A model generated the notes under the pieces. That model had not been told where the DNA came from and ran no database searches. It saw only the letters and a program-made list of their open reading frames with translations. From positions 30,774 through 94,773 of the forward strand of contig CAVAAT010000016.1 in the NCBI GenBank assembly GCA_963586925.1: a stretch of 64,000 bases of DNA, in the 5' to 3' direction. A program made the translations under genes and the position numbers. This DNA is from Erysipelotrichaceae bacterium. Lineage in GTDB: Bacteria > Bacillota_I > Bacilli_A > Erysipelotrichales > Erysipelotrichaceae. The number at the start of each line of letters is the position of its first letter. The stretch's first letter is position 1. Positions 1 through 14,297 of the stretch are shown here, one piece after another.

Positions 1-61
1 TTAGCTTTCTATCAAAATATTACTACTAAATACAAGTAAATGCTAGCACATAAACATATAC

Positions 62-89
62 AAAAAATGATAGAAATATCATCTATCAT
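62..89 (-). terminator. Rho-independent terminator downstream of the nifB-like gene (stem atgataga / tctatcat, then T-run on minus strand)
   Basis: 8-bp perfect inverted repeat at 67-74 / 82-89 followed by a T-tract read on the minus strand; lies directly after the stop of the 118..957 gene. Confidence 0.5.
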
Positions 90-117
90 AATTTTTGCAT
101 GCTTCCTTCATACACTT

Positions 118-957
118 TTACAAACAACCACAAGTCCTCGTAGTGCCATCACTTAATACTAAAACATCAGCACGACATCTACTACAAGTAGTCAACTCTT
201 CTAAATGTTTCGAACACAGATAACGCATTCTTTCTACTTCACCAATGTTAGGGATTTCTTCTTCTAAGATATTTTCATTAGGTATGACTGGTAAGATATT
301 ATGGATCAAGCAACCATACTCTTTAGCTTTGATAGCGATAGCTTCTATTTCAGAATCATTTCTCCCTTTGACATATACTGTATTGATCTTTACTTTTAAA
401 CCTGCTTCAATTGCCTTTTTAATACCGTTCCATTGTCCTTTTAAGAAAGCATCATATGCTTCATAAGTTTTTTTAGAAGCAATATGCTCATAGATCTTCA
501 TTGCTGTCTCTACCGTTAAAGCATTGACAGTAACAGTTAATGTATCAACTAATCCCTTTAGACTATCAACATTTTCCTCAAGTAATAAGCCATTAGTAGA
601 GACACAAAGTAATAACTTGGGATATTTTTCATGTATCACTTTAAAAGTCTCTATGGTTTTTTTAGACAATAAAGGTTCTCCAGGACCAGCAATACCTACT
701 ACTAAAAAATTTGGATCGATATTAACTGCCATATCTACTTTTTTTACTGCTTCTTCTACCGTCAATACATTAGAGGCGACTCCCGGCCTACAACCATGAT
801 AACAAGCATCAACAGTAGGTTTACAAAAACAACATTTGATATTACAAGGATAAGCCACTGGTAAATGCATTCTACCAGAAGCTTTAAAGCTATTATTAAA
901 ACAAGGATGCTTTCTAATAAGTTGTTCTCTTTCAAATAAATCATTACTAATATCCAT
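118..957 (-). CDS. NifB-family radical SAM protein (FeMo-cofactor-biosynthesis-like core, no NifX-like C-terminal domain)
   Basis: 279 aa; HPCFNN...RMHLPVAYPCNIKCCFC matches the NifB HPC...RMHLPVA..CNIQCNYC CxxxCxxC region; overlaps the upstream nifH-like gene by 11 nt. Confidence 0.85.
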   Translation of the reverse strand: MDISNDLFEREQLIRKHPCFNNSFKASGRMHLPVAYPCNIKCCFCKPTVDACYHGCRPGVASNVLTVEEAVKKVDMAVNIDPNFLVVGIAGPGEPLLSKKTIETFKVIHEKYPKLLLCVSTNGLLLEENVDSLKGLVDTLTVTVNALTVETAMKIYEHIASKKTYEAYDAFLKGQWNGIKKAIEAGLKVKINTVYVKGRNDSEIEAIAIKAKEYGCLIHNILPVIPNENILEEEIPNIGEVERMRYLCSKHLEELTTCSRCRADVLVLSDGTTRTCGCL

Positions 958-1753
958 ATAAGCTATTCATCTCTTCATAAAATTCTTTGCGATCCCAAGG
1001 AGTATTATTTATTACTTCATGTTGTTGTAAGATATATTCACTTGCTTGAAGATAAGCATCATAAGTTTCTTTGCTACAATTTTGATCAATAGCAGTCAAA
1101 CCTTTTAATTCATTTAAAGGGATCATTTCATCATGAGGAATGACACTGATAAGAGGCACATTAATTTTAGAAGCAAACTTCTCTACTATTACTTTTTCGT
1201 TATCAAATCCAGCACTATTTAGTATCAAACCTTTGACTACTTTCTTATTCTCATTCATACCTTTAGTGATATTATTTGCTGCATATAAAGAAGCTTGTTC
1301 ACCTGATGAAACAATATAGATCTCATTAGCGTAACCCTTAGATATCGGCGTAGCAAATCCTCCACAGACTACATCTCCTAAAACATCATATATGACTACA
1401 TCAAGATCATCTAATAACTTCTTTTGGGATAATAAACCTAATGCCATGATAAGACCTCTACCAGCGCATCCCACTCCTGGTTTTGGTCCTCCTACTTCCG
1501 CACATAAAATATCATATCTTCCTTTAATGACACATTCATTAATATCACATTCTTTTTCAATGATTTGTTCATACTTTTCTAAGATTGAGGAAATATAACC
1601 ACCAGTGATCAAACGCACAGTATCTTGTTTAGGATCACAACCAATTAGACCAACTTTATAGCCCTTTTGAGCTAAAAGAACCGCAAGATTAGCTGAAAAA
1701 GTTGATTTACCGATTCCACCTTTACCATAAATTGCTATCCTTTTTTTAATCAT
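947..1753 (-). CDS. NifH/BchL-family ATPase (nitrogenase iron protein-like)
   Basis: 268 aa; IAIYGKGGIGKST P-loop, CDPKQDT, GVGCAGRG and VVCGGFA (both 4Fe-4S Cys ligands) near-identical to NifH. Confidence 0.9.
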   Translation of the reverse strand: MIKKRIAIYGKGGIGKSTFSANLAVLLAQKGYKVGLIGCDPKQDTVRLITGGYISSILEKYEQIIEKECDINECVIKGRYDILCAEVGGPKPGVGCAGRGLIMALGLLSQKKLLDDLDVVIYDVLGDVVCGGFATPISKGYANEIYIVSSGEQASLYAANNITKGMNENKKVVKGLILNSAGFDNEKVIVEKFASKINVPLISVIPHDEMIPLNELKGLTAIDQNCSKETYDAYLQASEYILQQHEVINNTPWDRKEFYEEMNSLYGY

Positions 1754-2942
1754 GAAAATGCTCCTTTAACTTTCTAGTCAAATATTTCATTCCTGAAACA
1801 CCAAATAACGACTCATTATCTTCTACAGAATCCCAAACAGGAGCTGTAAAAGGTATATATAAACATTCTTCATTATGACCATAGACATTTGATGAACCAA
1901 AAGATATCGCACAATCTAATTCTTTTCTAAATTCATTTAATTCATAACCGCCAACATCAGCTTCTAACCAATCACATATACCTAATTCATCTAATTTTTC
2001 TACACCATAACTATCACTACTTACCGCAAGTTTACAATCAAATTCTTCCTTTAACATCTTAGCTAAGCTAACAGCATAATAACAATCAGCTTCGATCATA
2101 ACATATCTTTTAGAAAGATATGTTTTAAGATAATCGATATCGTCACTTAATTCTTCTCTTTCTTTATCTAACTTATCAAAGATATTTTGATCAATCTCTT
2201 TACCTGTGATCTCACTTATCTTTTTTATAAAATCTTTGATCGCAGAAAAACCGATCGGAGCATATGTATCACTACGCTCATTTAATAAACCAATGTAAAT
2301 CACTTTAGCTTTACTATATTCTTGTAGATCTTTATCTATATCAAACTCGACGGAAATGGAAGGTGCTAAAACTAAGCCACAATAATCTTCAACTATCTTT
2401 TTAAGTTCTAACATATTCTTTTTAGAATTATAAACCGAAGCTGCCATTCCATCTAACGCTATCCTTTTACCATCAAATTCATGCTCAATATTTAACCAAC
2501 TAATAAAATCATCATAACTCTTACGATAGCCATCATTATCCTCACCAAATAAACTACTACCATCTTCCAAAAATACCTTGATACCTGTATCCTTTTGATA
2601 TTGTTCAATGATATCTTGATAATCTTCGCCGATCATACTTGTTGCACAAGTCAATATCACAAATATGACTTTCGGACTATAAACTCTAGCTGCCTTATAT
2701 AAAGCTGCTTGTAATTTACTTGTAGTACCTAAAGCAAGTTCATATTGATAGATCGCAGTAGTAGGTAATATTGGACATTTATCAGCCAATAAGAATATCA
2801 TTCTATAACCACCAGCACAACCTGTAGGACCATGAACGATCGCTAAAGAGTTATTGATGCTACAAGAAAAAGAGATGATTCCACCCATTGCACAGCCATG
2901 ACTTGATTCAATCCTTGAACTTATTTGTGTAGTTGTATACAT
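1746..2942 (-). CDS. Nitrogenase component-1-type oxidoreductase, alpha-like subunit (NifD/NifE-like, short form)
   Basis: 398 aa; IVHGPTGCAGGY resembles NifD/NifE ISHGPVGCGQY; Cys-rich N-terminus; overlaps neighbours on both sides. Confidence 0.8.
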   Translation of the reverse strand: MYTTTQISSRIESSHGCAMGGIISFSCSINNSLAIVHGPTGCAGGYRMIFLLADKCPILPTTAIYQYELALGTTSKLQAALYKAARVYSPKVIFVILTCATSMIGEDYQDIIEQYQKDTGIKVFLEDGSSLFGEDNDGYRKSYDDFISWLNIEHEFDGKRIALDGMAASVYNSKKNMLELKKIVEDYCGLVLAPSISVEFDIDKDLQEYSKAKVIYIGLLNERSDTYAPIGFSAIKDFIKKISEITGKEIDQNIFDKLDKEREELSDDIDYLKTYLSKRYVMIEADCYYAVSLAKMLKEEFDCKLAVSSDSYGVEKLDELGICDWLEADVGGYELNEFRKELDCAISFGSSNVYGHNEECLYIPFTAPVWDSVEDNESLFGVSGMKYLTRKLKEHFHD

Positions 2943-4282
2943 TCTGGTAACTCCTTTGCGTTAAAGACGCTCTCTGTAAAATCAAAGCCTTGCATTGCCA
3001 TTCTTAGCTTATCGCCAAAATTAACTGCTCCTGCATAACCTTCATGAGGGACAGTATAAATAGTGATCGGAACAAAAGGAATATGATGTTTTTTACAAAC
3101 ATGTAATTCTTGATATCCACCAGCCCATACATCAAATTTGATCGTAGTAGCTAATTCCTCAAGTTCATATAAACTAGCAGAAACAATGAAATTTCTTACT
3201 TTCAAATGATGTGTTTCCAATAAATGTTTTAGATCTCTCTGAGAATTCTGATGAGGATAAAATAGGACAGCCGTATCGATATCCATTTCATAATCATTTA
3301 ATAAATGTAGTAAACCGATAAGTCTTCCTGGTCCTCCTGAGATAAATATCTTTTTACCCTTTAATTCAGCTTTATTTTCTTCAAACTTATAACGATATTC
3401 ATCTTCTAACTCTTTGATCTCTTTTGTTTTGTCTAAACCTAATTTAGTAGTGATCTCAGTTAACCATTCGGTAGTTCCAGAAAAGCCATAGGGCGAACGC
3501 CAACTTAACATTGGTACCCCATCTTTTTCCATATCATAAACATAATCACCACATACTGCAGGACAGACTACCGCATTACCTTTAGCAGTCATGGCTTTTT
3601 GTACATCTTCTAATTTACTTCCCCCAGATAAGACAGTCTTAACCTCTACACCAACTTTATCAAGCATCCTTAAACATTCACCGATCTCTCTTTCATTAGA
3701 GCGTGTAGGCCAATGCCAGCCTATTAAGTTAATGCCACTTCTTTCACCTTTATATTTTCCTAAAAAAGGTTTAATTAAAGCTGTCATTGCAGGATTATAT
3801 CCTGCTTGAGGACTTTGCCCCATGATATTAGATGCTTGGATTGATGTGGTAGTGATACCTGTATATTCTTCTATCTGTCTTTCTATATCATCTAGCTCAA
3901 TGCCAGAAACGATCAGCTCATCAGTAGGAACTAAAACAAATAACTTGGGATCCTTTTTACCAACTATCTTCATCAATCTATCGGTGAAAGATCTTCTCAC
4001 AATGAGATTTCCAGTGACAACCTGTGTAGGAGTAAATTCTAAAGTGATCGCTGGTATTTTACCTAAATCAAAATCAACTTCTCCCATAGCTACTACCGCA
4101 AAACGAACATGATAAGAGCAACCTTTAGCTCCTACCATGATAGGAAAAACATCATCCATAGTCGCTAATACTCGATAAGCAGACATTATTGGACCTAACA
4201 CTTGATAATCAGCCCATAACTCATTTTCCGATAATTTCCAATCGTTAGTTAATTTTTCTAAACTTCCGTTATACCATTTCAT
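2921..4282 (-). CDS. Nitrogenase component-1-type oxidoreductase, beta-like subunit (NifK/NifN-like, short form)
   Basis: 453 aa; MVGAKGCSYHVRF resembles NifK HGSQGCVAYFRS; family-typical alpha/beta domain layout; 1-nt gap to the upstream permease gene. Confidence 0.8.
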   Translation of the reverse strand: MKWYNGSLEKLTNDWKLSENELWADYQVLGPIMSAYRVLATMDDVFPIMVGAKGCSYHVRFAVVAMGEVDFDLGKIPAITLEFTPTQVVTGNLIVRRSFTDRLMKIVGKKDPKLFVLVPTDELIVSGIELDDIERQIEEYTGITTTSIQASNIMGQSPQAGYNPAMTALIKPFLGKYKGERSGINLIGWHWPTRSNEREIGECLRMLDKVGVEVKTVLSGGSKLEDVQKAMTAKGNAVVCPAVCGDYVYDMEKDGVPMLSWRSPYGFSGTTEWLTEITTKLGLDKTKEIKELEDEYRYKFEENKAELKGKKIFISGGPGRLIGLLHLLNDYEMDIDTAVLFYPHQNSQRDLKHLLETHHLKVRNFIVSASLYELEELATTIKFDVWAGGYQELHVCKKHHIPFVPITIYTVPHEGYAGAVNFGDKLRMAMQGFDFTESVFNAKELPECIQLHK

Positions 4283-4283
4283 A

Positions 4284-5249
4284 CTATTCTGATACTAATC
4301 CCTTTTGTAATTCTTCTTTAGTCTTTTTTCTTTCGATCGTATACTTGATATTTTTGATCGATGCACTTATGATCAAGATCAAAATTGTCGCAATATAAGG
4401 AATTGAAGAGATAAGATCAACGCTATAACCTGCAAGTTGTAATCTATTAGCTAAAGCTTGAGCTGCACCGAAGAAAACTGAAGCAAGTGCAGTATAGATT
4501 GGATCAGCACCTGTGATATTTGTAGCTGACATACCTATATAACCTCTTCCTGCTGTTATATCTCTTTGGAACCAACTAACATAACCCATCGACATAAAAC
4601 ATCCACCAAGTCCTGCCATGATACCAGCAATAGCGAATGATAAATAATAGATCTTAATAGGATCAATGCCAACAGAAGTTGCAGCAGCTGGATTTTCACC
4701 TACTGAACGGATCCTCAAACCTAAAACTGTCTTTTTTAAAACATAAGCCATTAACAAAGTGCAGATTATTGCTACATAAGTCAAGATATTATGCCCTGAT
4801 AATATTTCACCCAATACTGGTATATCTTTGATAAGAGGTATATCGATATTAGGTAATACTGGTGAATTCAAATGTCCAACAGTACTTGCTTTTTGACCAG
4901 TCAAGAGATACATGACAAATACAGTTGCTCCACTCATGCCGGTATTCATTGCGATCGAAGCTAAGTATAAGTCTACTTTCAAAGAGAATGTACAATAACT
5001 AAGTATTAAAGTGATGATGACTGAAGCAAGTACACCTGCTAATAAACCTAACCAAACATTTTGACTGTAACCTCCTACTAAGACACCAGTCAAAGAGGAA
5101 GCAAGCATCATACTTTCGATAGCCATATTTAATACACCAGACTTTTGAGTTATAACGGCCGATAATGCACCAAAAACCAAAGGTGTAGAGATACGGATGA
5201 TGTTATTGATAAATGAAGGCATGCTAGCCCACGTAAATAAAGATTCCAT
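4284..5249 (-). CDS. ABC transporter permease (BMP/nucleoside-type system, NupC/YufQ-like)
   Basis: 321 aa polytopic membrane protein; start overlaps the stop of the upstream permease. Confidence 0.8.
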   Translation of the reverse strand: MESLFTWASMPSFINNIIRISTPLVFGALSAVITQKSGVLNMAIESMMLASSLTGVLVGGYSQNVWLGLLAGVLASVIITLILSYCTFSLKVDLYLASIAMNTGMSGATVFVMYLLTGQKASTVGHLNSPVLPNIDIPLIKDIPVLGEILSGHNILTYVAIICTLLMAYVLKKTVLGLRIRSVGENPAAATSVGIDPIKIYYLSFAIAGIMAGLGGCFMSMGYVSWFQRDITAGRGYIGMSATNITGADPIYTALASVFFGAAQALANRLQLAGYSVDLISSIPYIATILILIISASIKNIKYTIERKKTKEELQKGLVSE

Positions 5250-6334
5250 TACTTACTTTCCTCCTTTATTGCTTCTTTTTGAGCTGATCTTATGATCGCT
5301 CTATTTTTAAGTCCACTCATAAAACTCTTAGCAGCGATAAGCAAGATGATCACTGATTGAGCTATATAAACAAATTCAATAGGTATATCTGTATTGACAT
5401 TTAAGATATTAGCTCCTGCTTTAATGTAAGCTAATAAGAATGCACCAAGAGGTACCATAAATGGATTCTTTCTAGCAAGTACTGCGACTAATAAGCCATC
5501 AGCAGCAAGTCCAGGTAAAGCAGTCCAGATATAACGGTCATAAACCCCCATTATATCTATTGCTCCTCCAATCGCACATAAGCTGATACCAATAGCTTCA
5601 GCTATCAAAACATTCTTATTGACATTTAATCCCGCATATCTAGCAAAATCAGGATTTTCACCACATATTCTCATCGAGAATCCACCTTTACTATAGTAGA
5701 ATAAGATACCTACAACTATTACTACGATAAGTCCTAATATCAAACCTGTATTGATATTAGAATTCTTGATAAATTCAAATAAAGAGATCTTACCATCAAA
5801 TTTCATTGAAGCAAGATAAGTGATATCCGGATCTCTAAGTACTGTCTTTAATAAATAGATACAAACATAAGTGATGATATAATTCATCATGATCGAGACA
5901 ACCACTTCATTTGCGCCAAACTTTTGATCCATTACTGTTGGTATGCTACCAACAACTGCTCCCATAATGGCACAAGCTATCAAAATCACAATGATAAGTA
6001 AGATGTGAGGCAAGTTGGCTCCAAATCCAGTTGTGATCATTGCGGTAAGACAGCCAGCTAACATATAAACGCCATCACCGATCATATTAAAACGATTGAC
6101 AGCGTAAATAAAACACATTCCTACACCTGTAAACAAATAAGGAATAAATCTACTCATGATCATACCAAAACGCCTAGCCGAGGTAAATGGACCAATACTG
6201 AACAAATAAACAGCTTCTGTTGGATCATCAGTTACTACTAACATCACAATGATACACAACAAATAAGCAATGACCATGCTTAAGACCGTCCTAAATATTT
6301 CAAAAGCAAACTCGATCTTTCTTGTCTTTTTCAT
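5249..6334 (-). CDS. ABC transporter permease (BMP/nucleoside-type system, NupB/YufP-like)
   Basis: 361 aa polytopic membrane protein; translationally coupled on both sides. Confidence 0.8.
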   Translation of the reverse strand: MKKTRKIEFAFEIFRTVLSMVIAYLLCIIVMLVVTDDPTEAVYLFSIGPFTSARRFGMIMSRFIPYLFTGVGMCFIYAVNRFNMIGDGVYMLAGCLTAMITTGFGANLPHILLIIVILIACAIMGAVVGSIPTVMDQKFGANEVVVSIMMNYIITYVCIYLLKTVLRDPDITYLASMKFDGKISLFEFIKNSNINTGLILGLIVVIVVGILFYYSKGGFSMRICGENPDFARYAGLNVNKNVLIAEAIGISLCAIGGAIDIMGVYDRYIWTALPGLAADGLLVAVLARKNPFMVPLGAFLLAYIKAGANILNVNTDIPIEFVYIAQSVIILLIAAKSFMSGLKNRAIIRSAQKEAIKEESK

Positions 6335-7884
6335 TAGTCATCACCTTCCATTTCTTCTTGACTCATCGTTTTTAAGCCTAACATATATTCACCTAAAGTA
6401 TCTTCATTCACATCACTCATCTTCTTGAAGTGAGCAACAAACTTTCCTTTATACATAACTAGCAAGCGATCAGAAACTTCTAATACTTCATTTAGATCAG
6501 AAGATATCAATAAGGCTCCAACTTTACCTGTTCTTGTCTTTTCAATCAACTTCTTATGGATGATCTCAGTAGTACCAACATCGATCCCTCTTGTTGGCTG
6601 ATTAGCTACGATGAAGTTCGCTCCACTATTGAACTCTCTAGCCACGATAACTTTTTGAATATTACCACCTGATAATAAACGAACTGGCTCAGTACGATCA
6701 TCACAGGCAATCTCATATTCGGCGATACAATCATCAATAAACTTATTCATTTTCTTCATGTCTAATAATAAGCCTTTATTAAACTCTTTATTAGACAAAT
6801 ATATAGAGGCGATATTCTCTCTTATCGATAAAGATTGAGCACAACCATATTTCATCCTATCTTCCGATATTGAACAAACGCCTAATTTTCTTATATTATC
6901 AATACTTAAATTATGGATACTCTTACCATTGATCAAGATTTTACCAAAATCAAAACTACGCATTCCCGTTAATATCTCAGATAATTGATTCTGTCCATTA
7001 CCTTCAACTCCTGCAATACCAACGATCTCACCAGCATGGATCTTCAAAGAAATGTTATCAATGATCTTTTTATTATTTTCATCAAAATAAGTTAGATCAT
7101 CGATCTCTGCGATCGTCTCCTTAACTTCGGCTTTAGCTTTTTCAATGGAATTAACCGCATCTCTTCCTACCATTAGTTGCGATATTTTCGCAGGGCTAAG
7201 ATTACAGATGTCATCATTAGCAACTAGCTTTCCCTTACGTAATACAGTGATCCTATCACATAACTCCATGATCTCTTCTAATTTATGAGAGATAAAGACG
7301 ATCGATAAACCTTGCTTAGCCATACTTTTTAATTGCACGAACAATTCTTTAGTTTCTTGAGGTGTCAATACAGCAGTTGGTTCATCTAGAATGAGTACTT
7401 TACAATTTCTGACTAAGGCTTTTAAGATCTCTACTTTTTGTTTAGTACCTACCCCAAGATCATTAACGATATCAGTAGCATTGATCTTTAAGTTATATTT
7501 ATCAGCAACTTCTTGGGTCTTTTTTATAGCCTCTTGATAATTAAAGTTAATGCCTTTATGTGGTTCAATACCTAACATAACATTTTCTGCTACACTTAAT
7601 GATGGTACTTGCATGAAATGTTGATGGACCATACCAATACCATAAGAGATAGCTTCTATAGGTGAAGTGATATTCACTTTCTCACCATTTATATAGACAT
7701 CTCCTTCTTGATGATCTTCTAATCCAAAAAGTATCTTCATTAATGTTGTTTTACCTGCTCCATTTTCACCAACAAGAGCATGTATCTCCCCTTCATTTAC
7801 CGATAGATCAATATGATCATTAGCTTTAAAGCCATTACTATAGATCTTGGTTATATTTTTCATTAGTAGGATTTCCTTAGCCAT
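6334..7884 (-). CDS. ABC transporter ATP-binding protein with duplicated ATPase domains (sugar/nucleoside-type, NupA/RbsA-like)
   Basis: Two Walker A/ABC-signature modules (GENGAGKTT, LSGG); start chosen at MAKEILLMKN (7884), preceded by GGAGGT RBS, not the upstream in-frame Met at 7932. Confidence 0.85.
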   Translation of the reverse strand: MAKEILLMKNITKIYSNGFKANDHIDLSVNEGEIHALVGENGAGKTTLMKILFGLEDHQEGDVYINGEKVNITSPIEAISYGIGMVHQHFMQVPSLSVAENVMLGIEPHKGINFNYQEAIKKTQEVADKYNLKINATDIVNDLGVGTKQKVEILKALVRNCKVLILDEPTAVLTPQETKELFVQLKSMAKQGLSIVFISHKLEEIMELCDRITVLRKGKLVANDDICNLSPAKISQLMVGRDAVNSIEKAKAEVKETIAEIDDLTYFDENNKKIIDNISLKIHAGEIVGIAGVEGNGQNQLSEILTGMRSFDFGKILINGKSIHNLSIDNIRKLGVCSISEDRMKYGCAQSLSIRENIASIYLSNKEFNKGLLLDMKKMNKFIDDCIAEYEIACDDRTEPVRLLSGGNIQKVIVAREFNSGANFIVANQPTRGIDVGTTEIIHKKLIEKTRTGKVGALLISSDLNEVLEVSDRLLVMYKGKFVAHFKKMSDVNEDTLGEYMLGLKTMSQEEMEGDD

Positions 7885-7947
7885 ATTTACCTCCATATAA
7901 AATAAATGGGGATGAAAAATTTCAATCCCCAATTTATATATTTTTAA

Positions 7948-9045
7948 CTATTGTTGAGCGCTTCTCCAAGCATCAAATTCTTCGAAATTTGCGAAAGAGA
8001 AATAATAAGATTTTGGTTCAACTTTGCCATTGATGATGTCATCCTTCAAAGCAGTAACAGCATCTTGAACTTCTTGAGAAACGATCTCTTTGTAATGATC
8101 ATTATAAGCAAGATCCATTGCTCCAGTATCTACACCTTGAACATCTACTTGTCCCCAAACAGAATCATCACCGTTCATGAACTTATCAAATACAGCAACG
8201 ATAGAAACATCGATCTTCTTAACAACAGAAGTAACGATTGAATCAACTAATTTAGCATCATCACTATCTTGATATGCTAACCATTGGTCATCATCAACAC
8301 CGATCAAATAGAAGCCATTATCACGACCACCCATGTCATAAGCAGCTTGCCAACATCCTTGATAACCTAATGCGAATACTACATCATAACCATTCTGCAT
8401 CAATTCTTTAGTTACATCACTGAATAAAGCAGCATCCCACTTGCCTGTGTGAGCATTGTAACAAGAGATTGAAGAATCATAGTACTTAGCACCATCAAAG
8501 AATCCAGCAACGAAATCATTGATCAATGGGCTATCGTTATCAGTAACAACAGCAACTTTCTTATTTGCTGATAGACTAGCAGCTACATAACCACCTAAGA
8601 AGCTTGCACTATTAGCACCATAAGCAATAGCAGTAACATTAGAATGTTCACCGATCTCAGCAGTTGGAGCTACATCAAAGATAACAAACTTGATATCAGG
8701 ATATTCATCTGCATGTTCTAAGATAATGTCAGATAATGTGTTACCGGCTTGTGAAACAACATATGAATACTTACCACTATCACATACATCCAAAACAGAT
8801 GATTCATAAGTAGCACCGTTATTGTTTCCCAATTCAATAGCAGTAGGGTCAAAGCCATACTTCTCAGAAACTTCTTGACATGCTTTCCAACCATTGTCGT
8901 TGTAAGATAAGTCACCAAGTTGCATACAGAAATATGCTAAACCAGGATTTTGATCGCTAGTACCGTTGTCATCCCCATTATTTGAACAGCCTACTAGAGA
9001 AAGTGTCATTAATAAAGCTAATAACACGATTGAAATTTTTTTCAT
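7948..9045 (-). CDS. BMP-family ABC transporter substrate-binding lipoprotein (PnrA/Med-like)
   Basis: 365 aa; signal peptide with lipobox LVGCS; BMP-family fold motifs; GAGGAGG RBS. Confidence 0.85.
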   Translation of the reverse strand: MKKISIVLLALLMTLSLVGCSNNGDDNGTSDQNPGLAYFCMQLGDLSYNDNGWKACQEVSEKYGFDPTAIELGNNNGATYESSVLDVCDSGKYSYVVSQAGNTLSDIILEHADEYPDIKFVIFDVAPTAEIGEHSNVTAIAYGANSASFLGGYVAASLSANKKVAVVTDNDSPLINDFVAGFFDGAKYYDSSISCYNAHTGKWDAALFSDVTKELMQNGYDVVFALGYQGCWQAAYDMGGRDNGFYLIGVDDDQWLAYQDSDDAKLVDSIVTSVVKKIDVSIVAVFDKFMNGDDSVWGQVDVQGVDTGAMDLAYNDHYKEIVSQEVQDAVTALKDDIINGKVEPKSYYFSFANFEEFDAWRSAQQ

Positions 9046-9068
9046 TTCATTTTCCTCCTCGGTTGACT

Positions 9069-9077
9069 ATTATAGCA
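9069..9077 (-). promoter_or_regulatory. Extended -10 promoter element (TGcTATAAT) for the ABC-importer / nitrogenase-like operon
   Basis: Perfect TATAAT with upstream TG, 22 nt upstream of GAGGAGG RBS; no convincing -35. Confidence 0.35.
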
Positions 9078-9123
9078 CGAGACTAGTGACGAATAATAGT
9101 GGCAACTTAACGATTTTACAAAC

Positions 9124-9156
9124 AAAATTAAAAAAGATGGTATATTTCAACCATCT
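9124..9156 (-). terminator. Rho-independent terminator of rpoD (agatggt / accatct stem, T-run)
   Basis: 7-bp inverted repeat overlapping the rpoD stop followed by tttttaatttt on the minus strand. Confidence 0.55.
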
Positions 9157-10369
9157 ATAGCTTATCAACAAAATCTTTTAAACGTTTGCTCTTTGTTGGA
9201 TGTTTTAACTTTCTTAAAGCTTTAGCTTCGATCTGTCTGATCCTTTCACGAGTAACATTGAATTCCTTACCAACTTCTTCTAGAGTTCTCTGTCTTCCAT
9301 CAATTAGACCAAATCTTAATTGAAGTACTTTTCTTTCTCTTTCTGTTAAAGTTGAAAGTACATTATCAATCTCATCCTTCAGTAATTCCTTACTAGCATA
9401 TTCATCAGGTGAGATAGCATGCTTATCCTCAATGAAGTCTCCTAAATGAGAATCATCTTCTTCACCAATTGGTGTTTCTAGCGAAACTGGATCTAAAGCG
9501 ATTTTTTGGATCTCTCTTACCTTTTCTGGAGTGATATTGCCCAATTTCTCAGCAATCTCTTCAGCTGAAGGTTCTCTACCCAATTCTTGTACTAACTGTC
9601 TTTGAACTCTTGTTAATTTATTTATTGTTTCCACCATGTGGACAGGAATTCTGATTGTTCTTGCCTGATCGGCAATAGCTCTGGTGATTGCTTGTCTGAT
9701 CCACCAAGTAGCGTAAGTTGAGAACTTAAATCCCTTTGTATAATCAAATTTCTCGACTGCTTTAACTAAGCCTAAGTTTCCTTCTTGGATAAGATCTAAG
9801 AATAATAAGCCTCTACCAACATATTTCTTAGCGATAGCAACTACAAGTCTTAAGTTAGCTACGATCAATTCTTCCTTAGCACCTTCATCGCCTTCTTGAA
9901 TCCTTCTAGCAATCTCTTTTTCTTCTTCAGATTTCAACAAAGGAACTTTACCAATGCTCTTAAGGTAGATCTTAACATTGTCGTAATTCTTGCTTAAGGA
10001 AGTATCAGCATATTCTTTATATTTCTCTTCTTCTTGTTCATCGACGTTGGAATAATCAAGATTACCGATTTCTTCATCAACATCTTCATCAGAATCAGAT
10101 TCTTCACCAACAAGATCTTCATCAGCATCGACTAACTCATCTCCAAGTTCGTCTTCCATGATGATACCATTATCTCGCGTCCATTCAATGAAAGCTTCCT
10201 GTTCATCATCAGTCAGTTTAAGTTCATCAACTGCCTTCATGACCTCATCTTGGGTAATGATTTCATCATTTTGAGTTTTTTCTAATAGACTTTGCTTAAC
10301 TTCATCTAGACTCTTGAATTTTGTTTCACGCATTATCTCTTCCTCCCGTCTTTTTCGATAGTTGTTCAT
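9155..10369 (-). CDS. rpoD: RNA polymerase sigma factor RpoD (sigma-A)
   Basis: Regions 2-4 fully conserved ([47 protein letters not shown]); acidic N-terminal region. Confidence 0.95.
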
Positions 10370-12116
10370 TTAATTTTTTGATCTCTTTTTGCACATTGAT
10401 ATAATTAACTGATAGCTTAGCTTTTAAATGTCCATCATTCAATTTTTCAATTTGAGAAGAGATCTCCTTCTTTTCTTTTGTCAGTTTGTCGATCTTTAAT
10501 TTGATGCAACAATCCTTCAATAAATCTTCACTTGCCATCTCACTTAATGTCTTATCAGCTAATATCCCTAATAATAGTGAATATTGTTCATCATCTAATT
10601 GTTCTGATAAAGATGCGATCTTAAACTTAGGTTCTTGTTGGTAAGAATCTGTGATAAGTGAAACATAATGTTGATACTTCTCATCAGGAAGATCAACTAA
10701 TTGATCTTGAAAGATACTGACATTAGTAGCTGATAACATAAGTTGCTTAATGATCGTTCTTTGGGCGATCTCAAGACCAGTAATAGATGCTTTTTTAACT
10801 CTTTTTGGCATTTGCACTGGTATAATATCAGTAGCATTGACCTTTTCTTTTCTTAATACTTCATAAGAGAAACCACTGATCTCAGATAATTTTCTTAAAT
10901 AAGTATCCTTATCTAATTCATCACTATTAGCATTGATCTCGTTAGCAACCTTATTAACAAATTCTTTTTTAGCCGAATAATTGTTTAGATCATATTGTCC
11001 TTGATAATAAACAAATATGAAATCTAACCAAGTCATCGATTTATTGATCATCGCTTTAAGCTCACCAGCACCGTATTTATTGACAATCTCATCTGGATCA
11101 AGATCAGTCTTGTTATTTATTACCTTAATTTCGAATCCAGCATTTATAGCCATTTTTCCTGCTCTTAGGATTGCTGATTGACCAGCTTTATCGCCATCAT
11201 AAGCTAATATCAGTTTGCTTGCCTGACGTTTTAATAACTTTAATTGGTTATCTGTCAAATTAGTACCTAATGAGCACACAGCATTAGATATACCTGCTCG
11301 ATCAAAAGCAATGACATCCATCGGTCCTTCAGCTAATATCGCAGTCTTATTCTCCCTAATAGTAGCTCTCGCATTATTTAGATTGAACAAAACATCACTC
11401 TTATGAAATATCGGAGTATCAGTACTATTTATATATTTACTTGGATTACTCTTATCGATACTTCTTGCTGTAAAGCCAATAGGATGATTGTATTCATCAA
11501 AGATTGGTATCATGATACGATCATAAAATACATCTCTAATGCCATTTTCTGTTAAACGACAGACATTAGCCTCAATGATATCATTATCCCTATAACCTTT
11601 TTGATGTAAGAAGTTATAAAGACGATCATGAGTTGGGTTATATCCTATCTGATATTTACGCAATATATCTTTATCTAAATGACGATCGATAAGATAATCC
11701 TTATAAAGTTTACCTTTCGAAGAATTAAGCTCATTTTGGCAAAAACTCACAGTATCTGCGATGATCTTATGAAATACAGTTTCCTCAAAGACATTAGTCC
11801 TATTGTTAGAAAATTCATACTTGTAACCAATCTTATCAGCTACTTCCTTTATTGCTTCGGGATATGATATCTTCTTATATTGCATAACAAAGCCAAAGAC
11901 ATCACCAGAAGTATGATTTTCACTTGGGCAAGAGAAACATTTATATATCTGCTTAGAAGTATTGATATGCAAAGAAGGATCATGGTCATCATGAAAAGGA
12001 CAATAAGCTTTATAGTTTACACCCGCTTTGATAACAGGGATATATGAGCCTATCACATCTTCAATCCTTGCTTTTTGCTTAATATCATTAATAACTTCTT
12101 GAGGAATACTTGCCAT
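10326..12116 (-). CDS. dnaG: DNA primase DnaG
   Basis: CHC2 zinc finger ([13 protein letters not shown]...YKCFSC), TOPRIM region, position upstream of rpoD. Confidence 0.9.
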
Positions 12117-12124
12117 TTAACACC

Positions 12125-13513
12125 TTAAAATTTAATCAGTTTATTTAAATAATCTTCAATCTCATCAATCTTGATAGTCTCTTGTTTCATGCTATCACGA
12201 TCACGGACTGTAACTGTTTGATTAGTCTCACTATCGAAATCAACAGTGATACAAACAGGAGTACCAATAGAATCTTGTCTTCTGTAACGTTTACCAATAG
12301 AACCATTCTCATCAAATTGAACATCAAATGATTTAGCTAGCTTAGTATAGATTTCCATAGCTAATGGTGATAGTTTCTTACTCAAAGGTAATACTGCAGC
12401 TTTAATAGGAGCTAATGCTGGATGTAAATGCATAACAGTTCTCTGATCTTCTTTTCCATTAGCATCTACTAAGTTTTCAATATCAAAACTATCACAAACA
12501 AAAGCTAAGAATAATCTTTCAACACCAACAGCTGGTTCAACACAATAAGGAACATATTTTTCATTTGTATATGGATCAAGATAAGAAAGATCTTCACCTG
12601 AATGTTCCATATGACGTTTTAAATCATAATCAGTCCTATCAGCGATGCCCCATACTTCACCCCAACCAAATGGGAATAAATATTCAACATCACAAGTACC
12701 TTTAGAATAGAAAGCTAATTCTTCTTTTGTATGATCACGCATACGCATATTTTCACTCTTTAAGCCAAGATTAGTCAACCAATCATAGCAGAATTGTTTC
12801 CAATAAGGATACCACTTATCATCTTCTCCTGGTGTACAGAAGAATTCCATTTCCATCTGTTCAAACTCTCTTGTACGGAAGATGAAGTTACCTGGAGTGA
12901 TCTCATTACGGAAACTCTTACCTACTTGACCAATACCAAAAGGTAATTTTTTTCTCATTGTTCTTTGAACATTCTTAAAGTTAACAAACATACCTTGAGC
13001 TGTCTCAGGACGTAAATAGATCGTACTCTTACTATCCTCAATGACTCCCTGGAATGTCTTAAACATTAAGTTAAACTGTCTGATATCTGTAAAATCAGTA
13101 GCTCCACAATTAGGACAAGCAATGTGTTTATCCTTGATATATTGAACCATATCCTCGCTCTTCATAGCTTCAACATTAACTGGTTCTGTTGCACATTGTT
13201 CGATCAATTGATCAGCACGATATCTACTCTTACATTTTTTACAATCGATCAATGGATCACTAAAGTTCTTAACATGTCCTGTAGCTACCCAAACCTCTGG
13301 ATTCATAAGGATCGCACTTTGAATACCAACATTATTAGGATCTTCTTGAATGAACTTCTTCCACCAAGCAGATTTGATATTTTTCTTTAAATTTGCACCT
13401 AACGGACCATAATCCCAAGTATTAGACAATCCACCATAAATTTCAGAACCCTGGAATACATAACCAGAAGTTCTTAAATGGTTTACGATCTGTTCAAAAG
13501 TATATTTTCCCAT
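12125..13513 (-). CDS. glyQS: Glycine--tRNA ligase (dimeric class II, GlyQS)
   Basis: 462 aa; [13 protein letters not shown]...[18 protein letters not shown]-terminus typical of glyQS. Confidence 0.9.
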
Positions 13514-13574
13514 AAAACTTTTACCTCTCTTATCTTTCTACATATAAATACGCTATTTTTACCCAAAAGTAAAC

Positions 13575-14297
13575 CTAACTATTTAAATTTGTTAAACTTT
13601 TATAACTATTTACTCTTATACCCGAATAAATGACTAAGATATTCATCATGATATCAACTAACTCAAATTCATTCAAATTTAAATTGACTAATTTATCAAT
13701 AATATTCATGTTAGCTTTATTTATATATCTAAACTTCATAAGTAAAGAAGGACTCATTGCTTTATTTTCTCCTTGATTACATTTACGACACAAAAAACCA
13801 CCATCCTCTAATGAGATGGTCTCAATATCATCACTTCTACCACATAAAACACAACCATCTACATATGGTGAAATCCCAAGTCTATTCAATATCTCTGATA
13901 AAAAGATATTTAATATCAAATAGGGTTGATCATTCTTATCAAGATTTTCTAAGCTTTTTAATAACAAGTCATAGATATCTTCTGTAGCACACTTATCTGT
14001 TATCTCACATATTAAAGAAGCAATGGTTATCTTTTCATAATCATTTCTAATGCCACTAAATGTGTCAATAAGAGTTGCACTTTTAAGATGTTGCATATTC
14101 CTATCAGGGTAATAATCAAATATAAATGAAGAACGATTTAAAAGTTGAGTTGCATAGATATTTTTACCACTAACTTTCTTTTGTCCTCTAACATAAAGAG
14201 CCAATTTGCCATGCTCTTTCGTTAAGATATTGATGATCGCATCATTGTCTTTATAGTCATTAACTGAAATGACTATCCCTTCAATCACATCATTCAT
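13575..14297 (-). CDS. recO: DNA repair protein RecO
   Basis: 240 aa; C-terminal CxxC...CxxC zinc motif (CVLCGRS...CRKC); conserved position between era and glyQS. Confidence 0.8.
   Translation of the reverse strand: MNDVIEGIVISVNDYKDNDAIINILTKEHGKLALYVRGQKKVSGKNIYATQLLNRSSFIFDYYPDRNMQHLKSATLIDTFSGIRNDYEKITIASLICEITDKCATEDIYDLLLKSLENLDKNDQPYLILNIFLSEILNRLGISPYVDGCVLCGRSDDIETISLEDGGFLCRKCNQGENKAMSPSLLMKFRYINKANMNIIDKLVNLNLNEFELVDIMMNILVIYSGIRVNSYKSLTNLNS

Follow-up and report, generated by a model that had tools for sequence, protein, structure and literature searches.

A BMP-type importer with a probably nucleoside-like ligand and an uncharacterised nitrogenase-like reductase appear to form one operon in an Erysipelotrichaceae bacterium

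The subject of this study is a series of eight genes in a 64,000-nucleotide stretch of DNA from an Erysipelotrichaceae bacterium (GenBank assembly GCA_963586925.1, contig CAVAAT010000016.1, positions 30,774 to 94,773 of the forward strand), hereafter called the window, in which an ATP-binding cassette (ABC) importer of the PnrA/BMP type is encoded next to a nitrogenase-like reductase whose subunits we designate NflD, NflK and NflH (Table 1). All genes of this region are located on the minus strand, and the eight genes are framed by two terminator hairpins. A previous sequence-only reading of the same DNA had placed a BMP-family lipoprotein, a double ATPase and two permeases at 4284-9045, and we found all four there on the minus strand. 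Our own reading of the region as an operon draws on sequence and gene order.

Table 1. Genes and sequence features of the importer-reductase region (positions in the window).
Feature	Position	Strand	Basis or remark
rpoD	9155-10369	-	gene upstream of operon
Terminator hairpin ending rpoD (AGATGGT...ACCATCT, then T run)	9135-9156	-	pattern scan; RNA fold -8.6 kcal/mol, z -3.1
Promoter-like extended -10 box TGcTATAAT (9077-9069) and ribosome-binding site GAGGAGG (9060-9054), ahead of binding-protein gene	9054-9077	-	sequence; function inferred
BMP/PnrA-family lipoprotein substrate-binding protein, 365 aa	7948-9045	-	Pfam Bmp, PDB matches, AlphaFold model, Foldseek
Hairpin GGGGAT...ATCCCC in the 63-nt spacer (7885-7947) between binding-protein and ATPase genes	7908-7930	-	sequence; modest fold, centroid -9.9 kcal/mol, z -1.3
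Fused double ABC ATPase, 516 aa from ATG 7884	6334-7884	-	two ABC_tran domains
Permease 1, BPD_transp_2, 361 aa	5249-6334	-	Pfam
Permease 2, BPD_transp_2, 321 aa	4284-5249	-	Pfam
NflD, NifD/NifE-like catalytic subunit, 453 aa	2921-4282	-	Oxidored_nitro 171 bits; NCBIfam; PDB alignments
NflK, NifK/NifN-like subunit, 398 aa	1746-2942	-	Oxidored_nitro 114 bits; cysteines 17, 42, 99
NflH, NifH/CfbC-like ATP-dependent iron protein, 268 aa	947-1753	-	Fer4_NifH 254 bits
NifB-type radical SAM maturase, 279 aa, without NifX domain	118-957	-	nifB TIGR01290; NifB structures
Terminator hairpin with T run closing operon	58-100	-	fold -14.5 kcal/mol, z -2.9

The junctions between these genes are tight in all but one place. 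The ATPase gene and that of permease 1 overlap by 1 nt, as do the two permease genes; the stop codon of permease 2 (4286-4284) is followed by a single base and then by the ATG codon of nflD at 4282, and from nflD onward the genes overlap by 8 to 22 nt. The sole loose joint is the spacer between the binding-protein and ATPase genes, whose modest hairpin may serve as a partial terminator or as a stabiliser of the mRNA; we interpret it as a common way of raising the dose of a binding protein. The listed open reading frame of the ATPase opens at TTG 7932, but a GGAGG site and the gene calls on identical contigs favour the ATG codon at 7884 as the likely start. Hence, the coupling of the importer genes that had been proposed from the sequence holds for the ATPase and the two permeases but does not extend to the binding-protein gene. 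Likewise, the spacing of 1 nt between the last permease gene and the reductase gene behind it had been described correctly, but this gene is NifD/NifE-like and not NifK-like.

The leader in front of the binding-protein gene measures about 25 nt. Its TATAAT box and ribosome-binding site are retained in two related loci (L012 and L011), and five aligned upstream regions had just the -10 box and the ribosome-binding site in common, so that no conserved operator was found upstream of the binding-protein gene. Our search for a riboswitch or leader RNA, with permissive settings for positions 1-14000 and with gathering scores for the whole window, gave no Rfam match at gathering score. RNA folding predicts the junction between permease 2 and nflD to be unstructured (-2.6 kcal/mol, z -0.35), and the only terminator hairpins seen precede the binding-protein gene and follow the NifB-like gene. 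Because there is one promoter-like site, an unstructured junction and a terminator at each of the two ends only, the importer and the reductase genes look like one transcription unit behind one promoter-like site, in line with the earlier suggestion that both are regulated as one unit.

The affiliation of the binding protein with the BMP family is clear from its score with the Pfam model Bmp (PF02608; 124 bits at a cut-off of 24.1; residues 43-342). Its signal peptide (MKKISIVLLALLMTLSLVGC) ends in the lipobox LVGC with Cys20 of the protein. An AlphaFold model (pLDDT 89.5) adopts a two-lobe periplasmic-binding fold, for which Foldseek returned E-values of 7e-23 to 3e-20 and TM-scores of 0.68-0.82 with PnrA, BmpD, Lbp and TmpC. 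All of the top 12 matches in the PDB were BMP proteins, and each of those whose title names a ligand holds a nucleoside; nearest were the nucleoside-bound forms of PnrA, BmpD and Lbp, and RfuA, AtzT and the Brucella protein 3s99 came next after the nucleoside binders. Among the nearest structures, Lbp of C. thermocellum contains guanosine, BmpD adenosine and PnrA of T. pallidum inosine, and the structures of PnrA from S. pneumoniae contain uridine, adenosine or thymidine. At the level of sequence, the PDB matches (Lbp, BmpD, BmpA, PnrA and TmpC) share only 21-24% identity with the window protein.

We mapped the ligand pocket through a residue-by-residue sequence alignment and the pocket description in the BmpA paper, without inspecting coordinates. 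Eight of the nine positions at which BmpA, BmpD and PnrA contact the nucleoside are the same or conservatively replaced in the window protein. In this alignment, the polar residues on the ribose side are kept (Asp98, Asp225 and Lys242 of BmpA correspond to D124, D251 and K276), and the sandwich that holds the base stays aromatic, with Y48 and W203 in place of Phe27 and Phe176, i.e., a Tyr/Trp instead of a Phe/Phe pair. Further equivalents of the BmpA pocket are D45 (Asp24), N49 (Asn28), F178 (Phe151) and V250 (Val224). Two other family assignments were considered and rejected. From the residue set of RfuA-type riboflavin binders (Y27, N82, Y157, W189), two of four were matched, G101 and F178 being PnrA-like; with agreement confined to Y48 and W203 and the ribose-side residues PnrA-like, the protein was not placed in the RfuA family. 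The best NCBIfam matches of all four importer parts were the 'putative B6 ABC transporter' models NF047927-NF047930, but the scores remained below the cut-offs (46.6/400, 438/670, 125/400 and 159/465, observed/cut-off), and membership in this group was rejected as well. Because the ribose-side residues and the aromatic sandwich are kept, the structural matches are nucleoside-bound, and nucleoside hydrolases or a ribokinase-like kinase are encoded in related loci (see below), the ligand is probably nucleoside-like; we read it as a riboside whose base may be non-standard.

The reductase part of the operon specifies the two components expected of a nitrogenase-like (NFL) enzyme, a NifH-like ATPase and two Oxidored_nitro proteins encoded by overlapping genes. 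Scoring of NflD with NCBIfam models gave 92.8 bits for nifE, 76.5 bits for the nitrogenase alpha subunit (both below their cut-offs) and 18.3 bits for nifK. Cys240 of NflD aligns with the cofactor ligand Cys275 of NifD, which further speaks for a NifD/NifE-like protein. One of the three P-cluster cysteines is present (Cys55, equivalent to NifD Cys88); NflD has no cysteine before residue 55, and the position of NifD Cys154 is occupied by Asp121, which is invariant among the 20 homologues from which the invariant columns of NflD were taken. A histidine at the position of NifD His442 is presumably missing, as judged by eye from the NifD sequence. With one P-cluster cysteine and no apparent His442 equivalent, even though the Cys275 equivalent is present, we rejected an assignment of the enzyme as a nitrogenase proper. 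The cysteines at positions 17, 42 and 99 of NflK are invariant across 40 sequences. The best model for NflH is CfbC (283 bits), followed by nifH (266 bits), both below the cut-offs, and NflK gives a notable match to the CfbD model. The maturase matches nifB TIGR01290 with an E-value of 1e-57 and, over its full length, the NifB structures 6y1x, 7jma and 7bi7 with an E-value of 3e-56.

From these features, the enzyme probably carries a NifB-made cluster and in addition an unusual bridging cluster with 3+1 cysteines. We note in this context that NflK supplies all three of its cysteines and NflD one, an arrangement which recalls the cluster of DPOR, yet a NifB-type maturase and the Cys275 equivalent are present. 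The catalytic subunit of the methylthio-alkane reductase Mar (MarD; 9fmg, 9d9u) aligned with NflD at an E-value of 5e-10, whereas NifD of M. infernus (9spz), a true nitrogenase alpha subunit, reached 2.6e-16. Membership in the Mar group was rejected, with MarD no closer than true nitrogenases and no sulfur or methionine gene context among the recurrent neighbour families of 47 loci, and so was membership in the Isr group (Group IV-F), whose partner protein IsrB is BciD-like, whereas the partner in the window is of the NifB type. Because an archaeal nitrogenase alpha subunit is closer than MarD and IsrB is unlike NifB, the reductase would therefore appear to be neither Mar nor Isr.

Among relatives of the binding protein, an indexed search yielded four close clusters with 95, 76, 76 and 53% identity, and an exhaustive HMMER search widened these to a subfamily with 64 cluster representatives at E-values of 1e-30 or better (31-41% identity), whose hallmarks are an insertion after a GVDxDQ motif and a C-terminal tail. 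The idea of an 'orphan' binding protein, which the four clusters of the word-indexed search had allowed, was dropped in view of these 64 representatives. Wherever the contig was long enough, the close relatives (at least 53% identity) all adjoin NflD. The adjacency of a BMP-type importer to NflD was seen in four genomic contexts: behind rpoD (L001, L012), behind genes for PTS-EI and a glycosyltransferase (P0023/L045), and behind a helix-turn-helix (HTH)-PfkB gene (L007, L015). A possible further context is that of L011, behind an aldo-keto reductase gene, where the contig stops before the position of the reductase. Found as it is in at least four different genomic settings, the importer-reductase block is not a chance juxtaposition. 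As an aside, the searches also recovered huge proteins with repeated BMP-like domains (P0150, P0182, P0191), one of 3060 aa with nine matched stretches and two more of 1155 and 1047 aa.

The loci L007 and L015, whose binding protein is 53% and whose NflD is 72% identical to that of the window, contain an extended version of the operon. In order, they encode a YeiI-like HTH-PfkB protein, two IU-type nucleoside hydrolases, a DUF6198 protein, the importer, five further IU-type hydrolases between the permease and NflD, and then NflD, NflK, NflH, a NifB-like and a NIF3-like protein. All seven hydrolase paralogues (L015 4902-9944; L007 7256-9210) possess the calcium-binding motif DxDTGxDD, and their mutual identity is 37-60%. 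They are thus old paralogues, probably with different specificities, which suggests a set of enzymes for different ribosides. Between the window and L015, sequence identity is of a similar order for the importer and the reductase parts (51-72%), and this fits their inheritance as one unit.

A more distant relative of the binding protein (37% identical) is encoded in locus L068, along with a YeiI-like HTH-PfkB protein, a DUF6198 membrane protein, the importer and four IU-type hydrolases; the hydrolase genes come right after the permeases, as in L007 and L015. At the place taken by the reductase in L015, this locus ends with genes for a cyclic amidohydrolase (allantoinase, dihydroorotase or dihydropyrimidinase type) and a ribokinase-like kinase. 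As a plain locus for nucleoside utilisation, L068 has the same layout as the sister locus of the window; in the lineage of the window, nitrogenase-like genes stand where the amidohydrolase and kinase genes are found in L068, and the window has lost, or never had, the hydrolases. A similar combination of a YeiI-like HTH-PfkB protein, IU-type hydrolases and a ribokinase is present in the yeiI/rihB region of E. coli, another nucleoside-utilisation locus. Locus L067, which also contains a YeiI-like HTH-PfkB gene, has no nitrogenase-like genes; its binding protein (35% identical) is flanked by a polyhydroxybutyrate (PHB)-depolymerase-like esterase and a 580-aa protein without a family match (L067 1259-2683 and 7500-9242). 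The BMP subfamily thus probably serves several different catabolic cassettes.

To view the reductase in its wider clade, we collected 47 loci with relatives of NflD (36-100% identity) from public genomes and metagenomes, chose neighbouring open reading frames through a conservation-weighted frame and clustered the neighbours. Many of these loci stem from metagenome bins of uncertain taxonomy, and they are not phylogenetically independent, so that the counts overstate the number of separate events. An ABC importer is part of the operon in 37 of the 47 loci. In six of the remaining ten, the contig is cut off, and importer-associated genes already appear at its end. BMP-type importers occur in five loci only, all with an NflD at least 70% identical to that of the window.

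Four layouts can be distinguished. In gut Clostridia such as Anaerotruncus colihominis DSM 17241 (layout a), a gene for an NPP-like phosphodiesterase on the opposite strand is followed by genes for a YhfZ-like regulator, the D, K and H subunits, two ATPases, a binding protein, two permeases, a NifB-like protein, a HAD phosphatase and sometimes a uridine phosphorylase; because the importer genes lie between nflH and nifB, the link of importer and enzyme is hard to doubt there. In Halanaerobiales and others (layout b), the order is GntR regulator, binding protein, permeases, sugar-epimerase/CbiR-like TIM barrel protein, NT5C/PNKP-like HAD phosphatase, D, K, H and NifB-like protein. Relatives at 60-66% identity (layout c) have a Crp-type regulator, D, K, H and an Opp-type importer; L017 continues with genes for a NifB-like protein and a uridine phosphorylase, and the contig of L042 stops at the binding-protein gene. 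The lineage of the window (layout d) has the BMP-type importer, with or without hydrolases, followed by D, K, H and the NifB-like protein. An observation in its own right was made in L018 (NflD 59% identical), where genes for a YjjI-like glycyl-radical enzyme and its activase (7464-9802) lie between a Crp-type regulator gene and nflD, immediately ahead of the latter, and where the contig ends without a visible importer.

Recurrent neighbours in the clade are NPP-like nucleotide pyrophosphatases/phosphodiesterases, NT5C/PNKP-like HAD phosphatases and uridine phosphorylase; the TIM barrel and HAD proteins belong to generic families. The phosphorylase scores 317 bits with the uridine phosphorylase model (cut-off 280) and 33-43 bits with models of 5'-methylthioadenosine (MTA) nucleosidase. 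As a pattern, not as proof, these accessory enzymes and the nucleoside hydrolases suggest that a phosphoester or nucleotide-like compound is converted to a nucleoside, which is then split into base and sugar. Genes for methionine salvage or MTA nucleosidase were not recognised among the neighbours that recur in the 47 loci, in which many singleton neighbours are without annotation. The same applies to genes for cysteine or methionine synthesis and for sulfur regulators, with the exception of an Rrf2/IscS/NifU set near L042 that probably is of a housekeeping nature.

Collectively, we consider it probable, if only by a modest measure, that the eight genes form an operon in which a PnrA/BMP-type importer for a riboside is coupled to an uncharacterised ATP-dependent nitrogenase-like reductase. 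The riboside would probably be a non-canonical ribonucleoside. Outside the cell, the lipoprotein would catch it, with the conserved polar residues gripping the ribose and the Tyr/Trp pair sandwiching the base, and the two permeases and the double ATPase would carry it inward. The reductase (NflH, NflDK), for which the NifB-type maturase probably builds a complex iron-sulfur cluster, would then act on the riboside itself or on the released base or sugar. As a hydrolase is missing from the window operon, the substrate would be the riboside as such, or else a hydrolase would be encoded elsewhere in the genome. We infer that the imported compound is the substrate of the reductase or a precursor of it, and by analogy two kinds of reaction would fit: the reduction of a heterocyclic ring, as carried out by DPOR, COR and CfbCD, which could prime the ring for hydrolytic opening, or a reductive attack that breaks a bond of a modified nucleoside, in the way that Mar and Isr act on C-S bonds. 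A wider proposal, for which we claim no more than a tentative standing, is that this clade would bring a nitrogenase-like enzyme into nucleoside or nucleotide catabolism for the first time, as an ATP-driven, low-potential reductase that would act on an imported riboside or on its released base and be fed by whichever importer, BMP- or Opp-type, is present in the lineage.

Several observations weigh against this picture. In the binding protein, Cys40 takes the place of the base-side aspartate of loop 2 (Asp19 in BmpA and BmpD, Asp27 in PnrA), and the loop around it is different as well; its sequence FCMQLGD is conserved in the five clade members. The stacking pair Y48 and W203 equals that of the riboflavin binder RfuA (Y27, W189). 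Relatives of the binding-protein subfamily also occur without nitrogenase-like genes (L067, L068), and the window operon lacks a nucleoside hydrolase of its own. Within the gene of permease 2, about 360 nt upstream of NflD, there is a further promoter-like site on the minus strand (TTGGCA-17 nt-TATTAT; 4672-4644); promoter-like matches in this region are rarer than in shuffled sequence, so that the site is no evidence of an internal promoter, although one may exist. The importer is of the Opp/Dpp type (SBP_bac_5) in 32 loci of the clade, including those with NflD relatives at 60-66% identity, and the nearest solved relatives of this binding protein are generic peptide binders that give no clue to the ligand. 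The substrate might thus be something other than a plain nucleoside, and different compounds may be carried by the two types of importer. Between NflD relatives of 66% (Opp/Dpp type; L017, L042, L035 and about 30 other loci) and 72% identity (BMP type), the importer family switches: either two unrelated binding proteins recognise one compound, or the substrate changed.

It follows from these counts that the notion of a BMP importer dedicated to the enzyme has to be qualified: an importer is nearly always part of the clade operon, but its type varies and BMP relatives exist apart from the reductase. The co-occurrence of BMP transporters with nif-like genes applies to the lineage of the window (5/47 loci) and not to the rest of the clade, which mostly employs the Opp/Dpp type. 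The BMP system could be an ordinary importer for nucleoside salvage that happens to lie upstream of an unrelated nitrogenase-like operon, with a shared promoter and separate pathways. BMP/PnrA systems are general importers of this kind, the window protein retains the canonical nucleoside pocket, and the two facts just named, another importer type elsewhere in the clade and BMP loci without a reductase, also speak for it. We nevertheless judge this explanation to be unlikely, with the importer-reductase block present in four genomic contexts and translationally coupled, all close binding-protein relatives on long enough contigs adjoining NflD, and importer genes between nflH and nifB in the wider clade, where a functional link is very likely. 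Rather unlikely, too, is another heterocycle as the ligand (riboflavin or a deazaflavin, a free purine-like base or a B6 vitamer), on whose ring the reductase would act or from which it would build a cofactor. The RfuA-like stacking pair, RfuA, AtzT and 3s99 as the next structural matches, the B6 transporter models as top NCBIfam hits and the preference of NflH for CfbC, a part of a cofactor-building enzyme, all point in this direction; they are set against the other two RfuA discriminators (G101, F178), which are PnrA-like, the retained ribose-holding residues, B6 scores far under the cut-offs and the IU-type hydrolases of the sister loci, which act on N-ribosides and not on ribityl compounds or free bases.

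The similarity of NflH and NflK to CfbC and CfbD, and a bridging cluster with three cysteines from one subunit and one cysteine (or Asp121) from the other that recalls DPOR, could also mean that the importer supplies a biosynthetic precursor and that the reductase is anabolic, like CfbCD or DPOR, rather than catabolic. We hold this to be improbable: the neighbouring genes encode hydrolases, phosphatases, phosphorylases and regulators of a catabolic type (GntR, YhfZ, Crp, HTH-PfkB) and not biosynthetic enzymes, and the CfbCD and DPOR systems do not include a NifB-type maturase. The sequence-only reading had pointed to a nucleoside-like ligand, as seems probable, and our pocket comparison with PnrA-type structures, made by alignment, did not match a specificity for sugars or other non-nucleosides; its further idea of MTA or a related thio-nucleoside as the imported compound, whose C-S bond a Mar-like enzyme would cleave for sulfur salvage, is in our view the least probable of the alternatives. 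In its favour, Mar and Isr, both characterised members of Group IV, obtain sulfur through the cleavage of C-S bonds, a NifB-type maturase and the Cys275 equivalent are present as in Mar, and the imported ligand is probably nucleoside-like. However, MarD is a remote relative and a weaker match than true nitrogenases, NflD lacks two of the three P-cluster cysteines, and apart from the set near L042 no sulfur-metabolism genes were recognised among the recurrent neighbours, which instead include IU-type hydrolases and a phosphorylase that is a uridine phosphorylase and not an MTA nucleosidase. Moreover, the three polar residues kept on the ribose side would fit a free 5'-hydroxyl group better than a 5'-thioether.

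Among known systems, the importers of the PnrA/BMP family (PnrA/TmpC of T. pallidum, BmpD/BmpA of B. burgdorferi, PnrA of S. pneumoniae and Lbp of C. thermocellum) resemble that of the window in fold, lipoprotein anchor and the partner set of a fused double ATPase and two BPD_transp_2 permeases. The window protein differs from them as a member of a separate subfamily with the Cys40 and Tyr/Trp replacements, and the window system is coupled to a reductase instead of salvage enzymes. RfuABCD, the riboflavin importer of spirochetes, shares the fold and the Tyr/Trp pair, with two of the four discriminating residues unmatched. On the side of the enzyme, MarBHDK (Group IV-C) likewise combines H, D and K subunits with a NifB-like maturase and has a cysteine at the Cys275 position, which suggests an L-cluster-like cofactor; Mar, however, contains a P-cluster, and the window operon differs in its importer and in the absence of a sulfur-gene context. 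The best precedent for reading an importer as a clue to the substrate is the isethionate reductase IsrBHDK of Rhodobacter capsulatus, where the ssuCAB importer genes belong to the same co-induced cluster and an importer mutant fails to grow on the substrate. IsrB is a BciD-like radical SAM protein that is unlike NifB outside the radical SAM motif, whereas the maturase of the window is NifB-like, and the sulfonate-type importer and sulfur-metabolism neighbours of Isr contrast with the nucleoside and phosphoester context found here.

Most nitrogenase-like enzymes of Group IV and all of those of Group VI are without a known function. According to a 2026 review, gene context has so far contributed little except for connections to sulfur and tetrapyrrole genes. 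In the literature, we found nothing relevant that connects nitrogenase-like enzymes to nucleosides, nucleoside hydrolase, uridine, thiouridine or Anaerotruncus. Taken by itself, the importer is a new member of a known family, and the pairing of enzyme and importer has its precedent in Isr/Ssu; what is new is that a single uncharacterised reductase clade is consistently linked to genes for nucleoside uptake and cleavage. This link narrows the search for the substrate to ribosides and their breakdown products, and the presence of the clade in the cultured gut bacterium A. colihominis DSM 17241 puts its physiology within reach. If the reductase indeed acts on a nucleoside or its base, the chemistry of the nitrogenase superfamily would extend to a new class of substrates.

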